Source of the DNA: Candidatus Vampirococcus lugosii
Lineage (GTDB): Bacteria > Patescibacteriota > Gracilibacteria > Absconditabacterales > Absconditicoccaceae
Direction of reading: 5' to 3'
Length of the DNA: 5,446 nucleotides
Assembly (NCBI RefSeq): GCF_018420025.1
Contig: NZ_JAEDAM010000067.1
Span: 1-5,446 of the forward strand
Shown: positions 1 through 5,446 of the stretch, in pieces
Layout: each line of letters starts with the position of its first letter
Numbering within the stretch: position 1 is the stretch's first letter
The notes under the pieces: model-generated
Seen by the model: only the letters and a program-made list of their open reading frames with translations
Database searches by the model: none
Told to the model about the DNA's origin: nothing
Made by a program: the position numbers and the translations under genes

Positions 1-462
1 TCAAAACAAGATCCCTCGACTTCGCTCGAGATGACACAAGAAGAGAAATCTTTAGACATTTGATTTAGAGTTTACAAAGTAGATTCTAGTAATATAAAAG
101 ATGTTTATTTTCATCCAAATGATATTGATCAAAAAAAATTATCATTATTGGAAAGTAATATAAAAGAAGATAGAAAAGCTCTTGATTTACTTACTGAAAT
201 TATGCTTGATTTATGACTTACTCTTGATTTATCAATAGAATCCAAAACTATTGCTTGAAATACAGTTTATTTTGTAGCTTGAAATAGTTTAGTTGCTTGT
301 TTTGATGAGTTTATAGATTTTGCAATTGTTGATGAAATAGCAAAATATGAACCTTTGAAAGTAGTTTTTAGAGATTCAAGTTTTAAAAACGATTCTGATA
401 AAATAAATTTTGAAACAAGATTTAAAAAATTGAGTCCTGAAACTGTGATTAGAGTTATTTAG
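1..462 (+). CDS. mod: Type III restriction-modification DNA methyltransferase (Mod), C-terminal 153 codons; the 5' end lies outside the window; translation table 25
   Basis: Frame 1 is open from base 1 to TAG 460-462 when the four in-frame TGA codons (61, 214, 256, 280) are read as Gly. Product: SKQDPSTSLEMTQEEKSLDIGFRVYKVDSSNIKDVYFHPNDIDQKKLSLLESNIKEDRKALDLLTEIMLDLGLTLDLSIESKTIAGNTVYFVAGNSLVACFDEFIDFAIVDEIAKYEPLKVVFRDSSFKNDSDKINFETRFKKLSPETVIRVI. From memory this matches the conserved C-terminal tail of type III Mod-like adenine methylases (GF+V+K+D.SNI ... LG..L...I......G..VY.V..N.L+ACFD ... +VVFRDS.F..D..KIN..Q.FK.LSP.T.++VI). The catalytic motifs are upstream of the window, so the call rests on this tail plus the downstream res gene. 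Confidence 0.75.
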
Positions 463-466
463 TTAG

Positions 467-578
467 TTATAAATTATAAATTTAAAAAAATGTTATTTAA
501 TTTACCAAAAACTTGTTTAGTAGATAAAACTATTCCCAAAAGTAAATTTTTTACAAAAAATCTTATAAATTATAAATT
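467..578 (+). repeat. Exact 16-nt direct repeat TTATAAATTATAAATT bracketing the DUF4391 start codon
   Basis: Copies lie at 467-482 (the mod-DUF4391 gap) and 563-578 (inside the DUF4391 gene, encoding LINYKL). Each copy is itself a tandem duplication of the 7-mer TTATAAA. Read directly from the sequence. Confidence 0.45.
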
Positions 579-1113
579 AAAAGAAAAATTTACATTGCAA
601 ATATCAAAAATTATTTGGAAATATAAATTATCTTGTAATACTTTAAATATTTCTTTTACTGATAAAATAAAAGAAATACAAATATTTGAAATAAAATTAA
701 AACAAAAAATAATACCAAAAAATATTTTAAAAATAATTAATAAAAGTATTCCTTATACTATTTTATATCATTTTAAATTTGATGATAATGAATTTTTTGG
801 AATAAAATTAGAAGATAATAAAAATCAAATTTATTATTTTTCTAATTGGAATGAAAAAATAGATTTTGATTTTAATTGATTAAATCTTGAAATTATTTAT
901 CAAAATATTATAAAATCTTTTATCAAAAATATAAATACAAAAAATAATAATTTTGAAGAAATAATTGAAAAAGATAGAAAAATAAATATCTTAAAAAAAG
1001 AAATATTAAAATTAAAAAGTAATATAAAAAAAGAAAAACAATTTAATAAAAAAGTAGAACTTAATAAAAAATTACAAGAAAAAGAAAAATTGCTTGAATT
1101 CTTAAATAATTAA
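490..1113 (+). CDS. DUF4391-family protein (207 aa) with a Lys/Glu-rich coiled-coil-like C-terminus; function unknown; translation table 25
   Basis: ATG at 490 and TAA at 1111-1113, followed immediately by a second TAA. A single in-frame TGA at 877, read as Gly, joins the 129-aa standard-code ORF to 78 further codons with no TAA or TAG. Sequence: MLFNLPKTCLVDKTIPKSKFFTKN...EIQIFEIKLKQKIIPKNILKIINKSIPYTILYHFKFDDNEFFGIKL...YYFSNWNEKIDFDFNGLNLEIIYQNIIKSF...ILKKEILKLKSNIKKEKQFNKKVELNKKLQEKEKLLEFLNN. Three regions match my memory of Pfam DUF4391 (PF14335, accession from memory): the N-terminal M..LP..T.V.K.IPK.KF, the central E+.+FEI.L......+..I.+.IPY.I+, and the C-terminal KEKQFN+KVELN tail. The start is 27 nt after the mod stop. 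Confidence 0.8.
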
Positions 1114-1152
1114 TAAACAGAATATATTACAGATTTTTTTAATTATCTAATC

Positions 1153-1232
1153 TAAAATTAATTTCATTATATTAAAATTAATGTTAATATTTTTTTAAAG
1201 AATAAAATTATTTCTGTCCTTGAAATTAATTT
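1153..1232. repeat. Cluster of short AT repeats in the DUF4391-ATPase spacer: perfect palindrome AAATTAATTT x2 and direct repeat TAAAATTAAT x2
   Basis: Read directly from the sequence. AAATTAATTT (its own reverse complement) occurs at 1155-1164 and 1223-1232. TAAAATTAAT occurs at 1153-1162 and 1173-1182, exactly 20 bp apart. Confidence 0.5.
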
Positions 1233-1247
1233 ATATTTTTATATAAT
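1220..1247 (+). promoter_or_regulatory. Candidate sigma70-type promoter for the ATPase/nuclease gene
   Basis: TTGAAA (1220-1225), a 16-nt spacer, then TATAAT (1242-1247), ending 52 nt upstream of the ATG at 1300. The 10-bp palindrome AAATTAATTT (1223-1232) overlaps the -35 hexamer and the spacer. In DNA this AT-rich, hexamer matches arise by chance, so confidence is modest. Confidence 0.35.
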
Positions 1248-1299
1248 GAGTTTATTATTTACTGTATAGAAACTAAAAATTTAGGATTTAATCAAAAAA

Positions 1300-2868
1300 A
1301 TGATAAAGAAATTACCAATATGAATACAATCATTTGAAATTATGAGAACAGAAAATCGATTATATATAGATAAAACTTCTAATATAATAAATTTAATAAC
1401 AAAATGAAGTAAATATAATTTTTTATCAAGACCAAGAAGATTTGGTAAATCATTATTAGTAGATACAATAAAATATTTGTATGAAGGAAAAAAAGAATTA
1501 TTTGAATGACTATATGCTGAAAAAAATTGGAATTTTGAAAAAAAAAATCCTGTAATAAAGATTAGTTTTTGATCATGAATTTTGAATATACAAGAATTGG
1601 AAAATAAGTTTGATTCTATAATAAATAATAATTCAAGAAATAATAATATTGATATAAATAAACTAATAGAAAAAAATTATTCAGATAAATTTTTTGAATT
1701 AATAAGAAATATATATGAAAAAACTTGAAAAAAAGTAGTAGTATTAATAGATGAATATGATAAACCAATATTAGATAATATAACAAAAAAAGAACAAGCA
1801 AAACAAATAAGAGATATGTTAAAAAACTTTTATGGAATATTGAAAGATTCAGATCAATATTTGGAATTTGTATTTATTACAGGAGTAAGTAAATTTAGTA
1901 AAGTTAGTTTATTTAGTGGATTAAATAATCTTGAAGATATAACTTTATTAAAAGAAGTATGAGATATATGTTGATATACAGAACAAGAGATAACAGATAA
2001 TTTTCAAGATTATTTGGAATGAATAGATAGACAATATATGAAAAAATGGTATAATTGATTTAATTTTTTGTGAGAAGAAAAAGTATATAATCCTTTTGAT
2101 GTATTATTATTTTTGAAAAATAAAGAATATAAAAATTATTGGTTTGAGACAGCAACACCAACATTTTTGATGAAAATATTGAATGAATCAGAAAAGTTTT
2201 ATCATATACCAGATTTGCAAAATTTATCAGCAGGGGAGGAGCTGATAGGAAGTTTTGATATAGAAAAAATAAATATAGAAACATTACTTTTTCAAACAGG
2301 ATATTTAACTATTAAAGAGAAAATAGATAAATGATTTTGAGTTTGATACAAATTACAGATTCCAAATAAAGAAATAAAAATGAGTTTAAATAAATATATA
2401 TTATATGATTATTTATGAGCAATAAATAAAGAAAATTATTTTGTATTTGCTTGAAAAATATTTTTTGCATTAAAAGATGGGAAAGTAGAAAAATTTATAG
2501 AATTATTAAAAGAATTATTTTCATGAATAGCATATAATCATATACAATATATAGCAAGTTATGAATGATATTATGTAAGTGTGGTATATTCATTATTATA
2601 TAGTATATGATTGGATATAATACAAGAAGATATAACAAATAAATGAAGAATAGATTTAACAATAAAAATATGAGAATATATATTTGTAATAGAATTTAAA
2701 GTATTGAAACAATCAAATATAAAAGAAGAAAATCAAGCAATAAAACAAATAAAAGAAAGATGATATTCTCAAAAATATAAACAAAATTGAAAACAAATAA
2801 TAGAATTATGAATTGATTTTAATTTTCAAAAAAGAAATATTGAAAATTATATAAGTTATAATTTATAA
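1300..2868 (+). CDS. AAA-ATPase-like protein with a C-terminal PD-(D/E)XK nuclease domain (PF09820 + PF08011/PDDEXK_9 architecture), 522 aa; translation table 25
   Basis: ATG at 1300 and TAA at 2866-2868. I checked the frame codon by codon: 24 in-frame TGA, no TAA or TAG. The product begins [63 protein letters not shown]. This is the hallmark N-terminus of the family ([25 protein letters not shown] at 1426-1452). Other family motifs are a Walker B-like [11 protein letters not shown] (1735-1767), [34 protein letters not shown]...[11 protein letters not shown], and the nuclease core [20 protein letters not shown] (D at 2653-2655, E at 2692-2694, K at 2698-2700) followed by IKQIKERGYSQKY. Standard-code ORF 2113-2334 is an internal fragment of this gene in the same frame. 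Confidence 0.9.
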
Positions 2869-2905
2869 TTTATTTTATTATTTTAATCTAATGGAATTAG
2901 TTTTA

Positions 2906-2920
2906 AGAAATATTATTTCT
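2906..2920. repeat. 15-bp palindrome AGAAATA-T-TATTTCT downstream of the ATPase gene (operator-like or weak hairpin)
   Basis: Seven-bp inverted arms (2906-2912 and 2914-2920) flank a single central T. It lies 38 nt after the ATPase stop codon. A 5-bp stem-loop precedes it (CTAAT gga ATTAG, 2888-2900, then TTTT). Both are AT-rich and thermodynamically weak. Confidence 0.3.
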
Positions 2921-3059
2921 AGATTAATTTTTTATTTATGATTTACATTATATTTAAATATTGAAACCAAAGATATTGTTTGAAAGTAGATGAATTAATA
3001 AAATTTTAAATATTAAAAGATAAAAAATAAATCACAATTTACAACTAACAAATAAAATC

Positions 3060-5446
3060 ATGAAACTAAAATTCAAAGAACAACAATATCAAACAGATGC
3101 TAGCAATACAGTAGTTAATTGTTTTTTGTGACAAACAAAATGACTTGATAAATCTATATGAGATAGACAAATTATTGATTATTGAGTTGCTTGAAAACAA
3201 ACTTATGTAGAAGATTTATTTTCCAACAAAAAACTTGAAATTACTCCAGAACAAATTTTAAAAAATGTAAAAAATTTACAACAAGAAAATTGACTTATAG
3301 AATCAAAAACTCTTGATTGAATGAATTTTAGTATAGAGATGGAAACTTGAACTTGAAAAACTTATGTATATACCAAAACTATTTTTGAACTAAATAAACA
3401 ATATGGTTGGAGTAAATTTATTATTATGGTGCCATCTATTGCTATTAGAGAATGAGTAAACAAATCATTGCAAATTACACAAGAACATTTCAATGAAATA
3501 TATTGAAAGAAAATTAGATTTTTTATTTATGATAATAACAATAAATCAAATCTAGTAAATATCAAAAATTTCTCATCTAGTGCAAATATAGAAGTTATGA
3601 TTATGAATTATCAAGCTTTTGCTACCAATAGTAAAGAATCTAGGAAAATATATCAAAATCTTGATACTTTAAATTCTAGAAGACCTATTGATGTTATCAA
3701 AAGAACTCATCCTATTTTGATTATAGATGAACCACAAAGATTTTGAGATAAAGCAGAAAAAACATTAAAAGAATTTAATCCACTTTTTACCATTAGATAT
3801 TCAGCAACTCACAAAAAAGATTTTAATAAAATATATAGACTTGATGCAATAGATGCTTATAATCAAAAACTTGTAAAAAAAATAAATGTAAAATGAATTG
3901 AAGTAGTAGGAAGCACAGCAACTAATAGCTTTTTGTTTCTAGATAGAATAAATATTAGCACAAAAACTTATCCAACAGCTCATATCAAGATGGAAATGGA
4001 AGTCAAAAAAGCTTGATGAATAAAAAGAATTTTAAAAAAAATTAAAGAATGAGATAATCTTTATGAATTATCGTGACAACTTGAACAATACAAACATTTC
4101 GTAGTAAAAGAAATTAATTGATTTACAAATACTGTAAATTTTACAAATGGTGTGACTATATGAGTATGACAAGCTTATGGTAATATAGATGAAGGACATA
4201 TCAGAAGAATACAAATCAGAGAAACTATTAGGACTCATATAGAAAAAGAAAGATTAATGTATAGTAAATGAATAAAAGTATTATCTTTATTTTTTATAGA
4301 TGAAGTATCAAAATATAGAAATTATGATGAAAATGGTAATACTATTCCCTGAGAATATGAAAAAATTTTTGAAGAAGAATATCAAGATTTAATAAAAGAA
4401 ACTACTTTATTTGATGAAGAATATAAAAAATATGTAGAAAAATTTAAAGTATCGCAAATACATAATTGATATTTTTCCGTAGATAAAAAATGAAAATTGA
4501 TAGATTCAAAAGAAAAAAGATGAAGTGAATGAAGTGATGATGTATCAGCTTATGATTTAATAATGAAAGATAAAGAAAAATTATTGAGTTTTTGAGAACC
4601 AACAAGATTTATATTTTCTCATAGTGCTTTGAGAGAATGATGGGACAATCCAAATGTTTTTCAAATATGTACTTTGAGAATGAGTCAATCAAGTATTAGC
4701 AAAAGACAAGAAATATGAAGATGATTAAGAATTTGTGTAAATGCAAATTGAGAAAGAATGGATTATAATAATTTGGAAGATAATTTTTTTGATTACAATA
4801 CACTTACTGTAATAGCAAATGAATCTTATGAAAATTTTGCTCGTGAATTGCAAACTGAAATACTTGATTCTATTTCAAATAGACCTATTGCAATTACTGC
4901 TGAAACATTGAAATGAAGAGTTTTCAAAAATGAATCTTGAGAAAAATATATTTTTGATGATAAAAAATCAATGGATTTGATTATAGAGTTGAGACAAAAT
5001 TGATATTTGGATAGTGAATATAAAGTTACTAGTAAATTTATTACAGATATTGAAACAAATAATTTTCAAGCACCAAAAGAATTAAAATGATTTGAGAAAG
5101 ATTTGTTGAAATTTGTAAACGATGTTTATAGTATGGATAATTTCAAAGCTGTAGAAAATGCAAAAGATGAAAATGTTTTTGAAAAAATATTAAAACCAAA
5201 TGATAATTTTTACAAAAAAGAATTTCAAGAATTATGGAACAAAATAAATCATAAAACTACTTATAAAGTACATTTTAATACTTCTGAACTTATAGAAAAT
5301 AGTGTAAATGCTATTAATTGAAAACTTGAAGTAAATCAAATAAATGTAATTATATGAACTTGAAGTCAACAAGACAATATTGATCAAGAAAGTTTAAAAA
5401 CAAATACGAGTATTAAAAGACTTGATAAACAAACACAAACTACAAA
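3060..5446 (+). CDS. res: Type III restriction enzyme Res subunit (SF2 helicase/ATPase), N-terminal 795 codons; the 3' end and the expected C-terminal endonuclease domain lie outside the window; translation table 25
   Basis: ATG at 3060 is the first start after an in-frame TAA at 3021. I checked the frame codon by codon to 5444: 38 in-frame TGA, no TAA or TAG. The N-terminus [25 protein letters not shown] is typical of type III Res. Walker A is [22 protein letters not shown] (ETGTGKT at 3342-3362, both Gly encoded by TGA). Motif II is [11 protein letters not shown] (DEPQ at 3726-3737). Further matches are [36 protein letters not shown] (4611-4676) and motif VI KRQEIGRGLRICVN (QEIGRGLR at 4707-4730). 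Standard-code ORF 5103-5321 is an internal fragment in the same frame. Confidence 0.93.

Follow-up and report, generated by a model that had tools for sequence, protein, structure and literature searches.

UGA is read as glycine in the code of Candidate Division SR1 and Gracilibacteria (NCBI code 25; Campbell et al. 2013 and Rinke et al. 2013, cited in PMC8629427 and PMC8080830). In Gracilibacteria with this assignment the expected UGA decoder is tRNA-Gly(UCA), and the reassignment is not in use in Gracilibacteria-labelled genomes that lack this tRNA and contain release factor 2; in Absconditabacteria, CGA and CGG are in addition translated as tryptophan (Shulgina and Eddy, eLife 2021, PMC8629427). 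For Candidatus Vampirococcus lugosii, the genome paper reports the reassignment of UGA to glycine, likens the code to that of other Absconditabacteria/SR1 genomes, describes gene calling with Prodigal table 25 and counts one type III restriction enzyme in the genome (Moreira et al. 2021, Nat Commun, PMC8080830). The present analysis concerns a contig of this organism, NZ_JAEDAM010000067.1, the whole of which (5,446 nucleotides) is referred to below as the window. The locus is the type III restriction-modification operon of V. lugosii, in which Mod, a DUF4391 gene, an AAA-ATPase_like/PDDEXK_9 gene (the ATPase gene below) and Res follow one another on the forward strand, and the TGA codons of these genes almost certainly specify glycine.

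With the EcoP15I-type systems (4ZCF), the locus shares the alignment of the Res core, helicase motifs I and VI, the profile match of the Mod C-terminus and the position of Mod upstream of Res on the same strand; in contrast to these systems, it carries the DUF4391 and ATPase genes between Mod and Res. With NCBI code 25 it shares UGA as glycine, UGG as tryptophan, UAA and UAG as sole stops, a guanine-plus-cytosine (GC) content of 20% and TGA as the dominant glycine codon (67 of 83, the other 16 being GGN). No difference from code 25 was found for UGA, but CGA seemingly stands for tryptophan in V. lugosii, an assignment absent from table 25.

Reading frames and the meaning of TGA

The GC content of the window is 20.3%, and from its base composition TAA or TAG would be expected at 0.091 per codon. 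The four forward-strand frames (Table 1) carry 4, 1, 24 and 38 in-frame TGA codons and no internal TAA or TAG. Our recount of frames and codons agrees exactly with an earlier interpretation made from the letters and their open reading frames (ORFs), here called the sequence-only reading, which had proposed that the whole window is written in code 25. The longest run without TAA or TAG is 807 codons; in 200 shuffled sequences the longest such run averaged 101 codons and never exceeded 199.

If TGA were a stop, the window would be pseudogene debris or non-coding AT-rich DNA, and the table 11 translation is in keeping with this: its longest ORF, at the beginning of the DUF4391 gene (490-879), has 129 amino acids, and no other exceeds 74. 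The probability of this explanation is nevertheless negligible, given that TAA and TAG are missing from frames of 153 to 795 codons in DNA of 20% GC, for which chance expectations from composition lie between 1e-22 and 1e-33 (P = 2e-22 for the 522 codons of the ATPase gene, P ~1e-33 for the 795 codons of Res). In addition, the window genes contain no frameshifts, the three genes whose 3' ends lie in the window stop with TAG (at 460) or TAA (at 1111 and 2866), and Res shows full-length collinear similarity, with 60-81% identity, to orthologues of ~1010 amino acids across the TGA sites. Under a code in which UGA is glycine, all four window genes are ordinary intact genes. The sequence-only reading had stated that the standard-code ORF track hides every gene; table 11 does shatter the genes, and the statement is nearly but not strictly true because the 129-amino-acid ORF at 490-879 remains visible as the start of the DUF4391 gene.

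The second rival, TGA as tryptophan according to table 4, leaves the ORFs uninterrupted as well, and public gene callers chose this table for this locus and ~30 relatives. Table 4 is used by Mycoplasma and several insect endosymbionts. To keep the query from biasing the answer, all TGA codons were masked as X before homologues of the four products were collected; homologues that themselves looked recoded were removed before the columns of all four genes were tabulated, and log-odds were summed for each amino acid over the TGA columns in the manner of Codetta. Among the standard-code homologues, glycine is the majority residue at 49 of the 67 TGA columns and accounts for at least 90% of the residues at 34, whereas tryptophan is the majority residue at none. 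On average, glycine makes up a fraction of 0.66 at these columns (background 0.045) and tryptophan one of 0.006; the summed log-odds amount to +198 bits for glycine, −151 for serine as the next best residue and −165 for tryptophan. By contrast, all eight TGG codons fall on tryptophan columns. These values leave the tryptophan reading a vanishingly small probability.

The columns were also tabulated gene by gene. For Res, 12 named standard-code homologues (from Melioribacteraceae, Ignavibacteriales, Labilibaculum, Woesearchaeota, Elusimicrobia, Planctomycetes and others) have a glycine majority at 29 of the 38 TGA columns, with 20 invariant and no tryptophan in any, and the three TGG codons of Res lie on invariant tryptophans. 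In the ATPase gene, 16 of 24 TGA columns have a glycine majority, and its three TGG columns hold tryptophan in 99-103 of 103 homologues. The single TGA column of the DUF4391 gene contains glycine in 68, alanine in 40 and valine in 11 of 150 homologues, tryptophan not being among the six commonest entries, and both of its TGG columns are tryptophan. For the four TGA columns of Mod, the counts are 71 of 73 glycine, 94 of 96 glycine, 48 glycine to 34 asparagine, and 34 of 96 with glycine as the plurality.

Motifs of the helicase core place TGA on conserved glycines and TGG on tryptophan, and the motif coordinates and readings given in the sequence-only reading were exact. The two TGA columns of Walker A contain glycine in 92 of 92 and 91 of 92 standard-like homologues, and those of motif VI in 92 of 92 and 86 of 92. 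In REGWDNP, where glycine is written TGA and tryptophan TGG in neighbouring codons, the TGA column holds glycine in 87 of 92 homologues and the adjoining TGG column tryptophan in 86 of 86. The aligned positions of EcoP15I Res (4zcf_C) read ETGTGKT, REGWDNP and QEVGRGLR. Under table 4, the Walker A motif would become ETWTWKT.

Profile scores were compared for translations with glycine, a masked X or tryptophan at TGA. In this order, the scores were 216.6, 205.0 and 200.4 bits for AAA-ATPase_like (PF09820), 76.0, 59.5 and 56.0 bits for PDDEXK_9 (PF08011), 56.0, 39.1 and 37.3 bits for ResIII, and 316.3, 270.0 and 254.8 bits for NCBIfam PRK15483. The glycine translation is thus the best and the masked version intermediate in all four curated profiles, and inserting tryptophan lowers the score below that of the masked sequence.

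Orthologous Res genes exchange TGA and GGN at the same sites. At the 38 Res TGA sites of the window, a recoded relative (L001, Res 81% identical) has TGA at 30 and GGN at 4, and a more distant recoded relative (L004) has TGA at 14 and GGN at 15; the standard-code Melioribacteraceae orthologue (L006) has GGN at 27 of 36 aligned sites. The L006 Res gene itself stops with TGA, whereas the recoded Res orthologues stop with TAG or TAA.

The homologue columns, the profile scores under glycine and tryptophan translations and the exchange of TGA and GGN among orthologues bear out the earlier claim that TGA is glycine and not tryptophan. The table 4 and pseudogene readings are both excluded, and it is as good as certain, judged from these alignments, that TGA encodes glycine in the window genes, with UAA and UAG as the sole stops (table 25). 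One observation weighs against this assignment. At 18 of the 67 TGA columns glycine is not the majority; these columns are variable, with serine, asparagine, aspartate, lysine, threonine or valine, and would fit glycine at unconstrained sites, without site-by-site proof. A search for tRNA genes, confined to the window and the related loci L001-L005, gave none. The expected signature, taken from the literature (PMC8629427), is that UGA would be read as glycine by tRNA-Gly(UCA) with no release factor 2 present; the text of the genome paper (PMC8080830) gives no tRNA anticodons and does not mention release factors.

The assignment of UGA to glycine in V. lugosii is already known and not new here: it dates from a 2021 publication, and the proteins of the NCBI record already follow table 25. 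The table 25 translations of the four frames are identical letter for letter to four NCBI proteins of Candidatus V. lugosii (Table 1). These exact matches identify the contig and agree with the lineage named in the sequence-only reading, a Gracilibacteria/Absconditabacteria-type member of the Candidate Phyla Radiation.

The type III restriction-modification operon

Table 1. Genes, motifs and single codons of the window, with the corresponding NCBI proteins
Feature	Position	Strand	Codons	NCBI protein
Mod 3' end	1-462	+	153 codons + TAG; TGA at 61, 214, 256, 280	MBS8122290.1, 'Type III restriction-modification system methylation subunit, partial'
DUF4391 gene	490-1113	+	207 codons + TAA; single TGA at 877	MBS8122294.1, DUF4391
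AAA-ATPase_like + PD-(D/E)XK (PDDEXK_9) gene	1300-2868	+	522 codons + TAA; 24 TGA	MBS8122291.1, ATPase
Res 5' part (SF2 helicase part)	3060-5446	+	first 795 codons; 38 TGA; runs off contig end	MBS8122293.1, DEAD/DEAH helicase family protein, 'partial'
LPI-TGA-IQSF at ATPase N-terminus			TGA at 1321	
Sole CGA of the window	1357-1359	+	ATPase residue 20; Arg in table 25 and deposited protein	
Walker A (helicase motif I), E-T-TGA-T-TGA-K-T = ETGTGKT	3342-3362	+	TGA at 3348 and 3354	
R-E-TGA-TGG-D-N-P = REGWDNP	4632-4652	+	TGA at 4638, TGG at 4641	
Helicase motif VI, Q-E-I-TGA-R-TGA-L-R = QEIGRGLR	4707-4730	+	TGA at 4716 and 4722	

The SF2 helicase core of Res and an adjacent Mod N6/N4 methyltransferase on the same strand, two features of a type III restriction-modification system, are both present. 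The Mod C-terminus matches PADLOC MTase_III (E = 2.6e-41, profile positions 482-618 of 621), and a full Mod of 707 amino acids with PF01555 is encoded at 3778-5901 of L002, one of two Logan re-assemblies (L002 and L003) that were built from sequencing runs of the organism and carry the window locus. Res matches PADLOC REase_III PDLC03647 with 772.5 bits, and its helicase core aligns with EcoP15I Res (4zcf_C) at E = 2.2e-62. The PRK15483 score given above, obtained on a protein truncated by ~215 residues, lies under the 564-bit equivalog cut-off. The C-terminal PF19778 RE_endonuc domain is present in the ~1010-amino-acid orthologues, and the window Res ends at residue 795. The DUF4391 product scores 124.6 bits with Pfam PF14335. 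PADLOC contained no model matching the DUF4391 or ATPase product, and a literature search on DUF4391 returned two incidental mentions only.

In recoded relatives (L001, L004 and L008) as well as in the standard-code L006, the genes are arranged as SNF2 helicase, DUF4391, Mod, Res and a protein of ~724 amino acids. An SNF2 gene also stands ahead of Mod-Res in at least 45 of 80 standard-code loci (Cloacimonadales, Clostridia and others), which come from one scan of a genome collection. Only standard-code relatives were among the 80 loci listed by this standard-code tblastn search, and the parent contig was not among them. In V. lugosii, no SNF2 gene is present within 5.4 kb upstream, and the slot between Mod and Res holds differing guest genes, namely the ATPase/nuclease gene in V. 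lugosii and SLFN_AlbA_2 in L001. Since the relatives share the order SNF2-DUF4391-Mod-Res, the V. lugosii operon counts, by this comparison, as rearranged, and another guest gene occupies its Mod-Res slot.

The ATPase gene and Res differ in synonymous codon preference. Isoleucine is written ATA 55 times and ATT 9 times in the ATPase gene, compared with 33 and 38 times in Res, and threonine ACA 14 times and ACT 4 times, compared with 18 and 29 times; the GC content is 18.8% in the ATPase gene versus 23.5% in Res. This contrast may reflect a separate origin of the inserted ATPase gene. A repeat search of the window gave AT-rich low-complexity matches only, with no terminal repeats around the ATPase gene, and the window gave no match to any Rfam family.

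Mobility is common among restriction-modification operons. Together with a gene order unlike that of the relatives and the distinct preference of the ATPase gene for ATA, this would suit an origin of the contig in a phage or another mobile element whose host is recoded, and not in the chromosome. We consider such an origin improbable, as L002 reaches upstream through the full Mod, a membrane protein of 829 amino acids and an M48 peptidase, the latter two being ordinary cellular neighbours, and as neither phage, integrase or transposase genes nor terminal repeats turned up in the window and L002. For the genome authors, too, the one type III system belongs to the organism (PMC8080830).

Two further observations concern the assembly of the locus. 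Mod contains an in-frame, GC-rich (45-50%) insertion of ~120 nucleotides that is not present in orthologues (window 1-40; L002 5350-5480) and holds an imperfect direct duplication of 78-79 nucleotides and a hairpin (fold z = −2.2). Within this insertion the NCBI assembly is interrupted, with the window starting at the break and a second contig (12344 bp) likewise terminating in Mod. In the DUF4391 gene, positions 1006-1007 of the window read TT and both Logan re-assemblies read CA, which changes leucine to glutamine; this mismatch represents a polymorphism, or else the assemblies from the sequenced consortia differ.

Public gene calls of the locus

The sequence-only reading had also predicted that any pipeline using table 11 would annotate the locus as gene-free or as pseudogene debris. 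While table 11 does break up the genes, the error in the public gene calls is a different one, namely mistranslation with table 4, and the NCBI record already uses table 25. The Logan/JGI gene calls of the window locus and ~30 relatives are table 4 translations, in which every TGA-encoded glycine is shown as tryptophan; this is the case for P0124, P0126 and P0128 from the window locus, and for P0002 and P0005 from relatives, in which METWTGKT and ALREWWDNP occur. In these calls, the recoded Res homologues contain 2.5-5% tryptophan and under 1-3% glycine, compared with 0.4% tryptophan and ~5% glycine in standard-code homologues. The table 25 sequence of the ATPase had no exact match in the contig index, where it is on record only as the table 4 product P0128. 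Such products put tryptophan at Walker A and at other TGA-encoded glycines, and they corrupt alignments and profiles that are built from them. The genetic code and the lineage were both inferred correctly from the raw sequence alone.

CGA codons and tryptophan

L002 shares 4.2 kb with the window and has hardly any CGN codons: it contains three CGA, one CGG and neither CGT nor CGC, compared with 66 AGA. The four V. lugosii CGR codons examined differ in weight, one case being decisive, another suggestive and the remaining two uninformative. The case that we regard as decisive on the basis of its alignment is a CGA of Mod at L002 3982-3984, 1.46 kb upstream of the window. The aligned codon is TGG in L001, L004 and L006, and the column holds tryptophan in 67 of 67 standard-code Mod orthologues, taken from the same scan as the 80 loci above, within the motif 'RLDWPGKK' ('LNWPGKK' in V. 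lugosii). The sole CGA of the window (Table 1) lies in a column with tyrosine in 80, phenylalanine in 18, histidine in 4, tryptophan in 3, lysine in 1 and arginine in none of 119 homologues; it is only suggestive because the closest relatives vary in this region. The uninformative codons are the CGG of the M48 peptidase gene, which aligns with valine or isoleucine in distant PDB homologues, and a CGA in the gene of the 829-amino-acid membrane protein, with which no homologues could be aligned.

Two other recoded relatives show the same placement. The sole CGA of Res is on an invariant tryptophan in L007 (codon 527, REG-CGA-DNP) and likewise in L008 (codon 944, NPD-CGA-AIV). However, CGA as tryptophan is not universal among bacteria that read UGA as glycine, because the L004 lineage (34% GC) uses CGA abundantly as arginine.

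V. lugosii thus shares very rare CGN codons and CGA on an invariant tryptophan with the Absconditabacteria variant of Shulgina and Eddy 2021 (PMC8629427), in a comparison that rests on four CGR codons. The genome paper (PMC8080830) does not mention CGA as tryptophan. We propose that CGA, and perhaps CGG, is likely to encode tryptophan in V. lugosii, which would then use the extended Absconditabacteria code and not plain table 25; table 25 is probably incomplete for this organism. Since the CGA-to-tryptophan change of the lineage probably extends to V. lugosii, residue 20 of the window ATPase is probably tryptophan and not the annotated arginine. We know of no NCBI table for a code that combines UGA as glycine with CGA as tryptophan.

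In summary, the confirmation of UGA as glycine makes no biological addition, and the mildly new element is the evidence for CGA as tryptophan in V. lugosii. If this assignment is true, the deposited table 25 proteome has arginine where tryptophan is made, including residue 20 of the ATPase and the tryptophan of 'LNWPGKK' in Mod, and the effect across the deposited proteome would be small but systematic.

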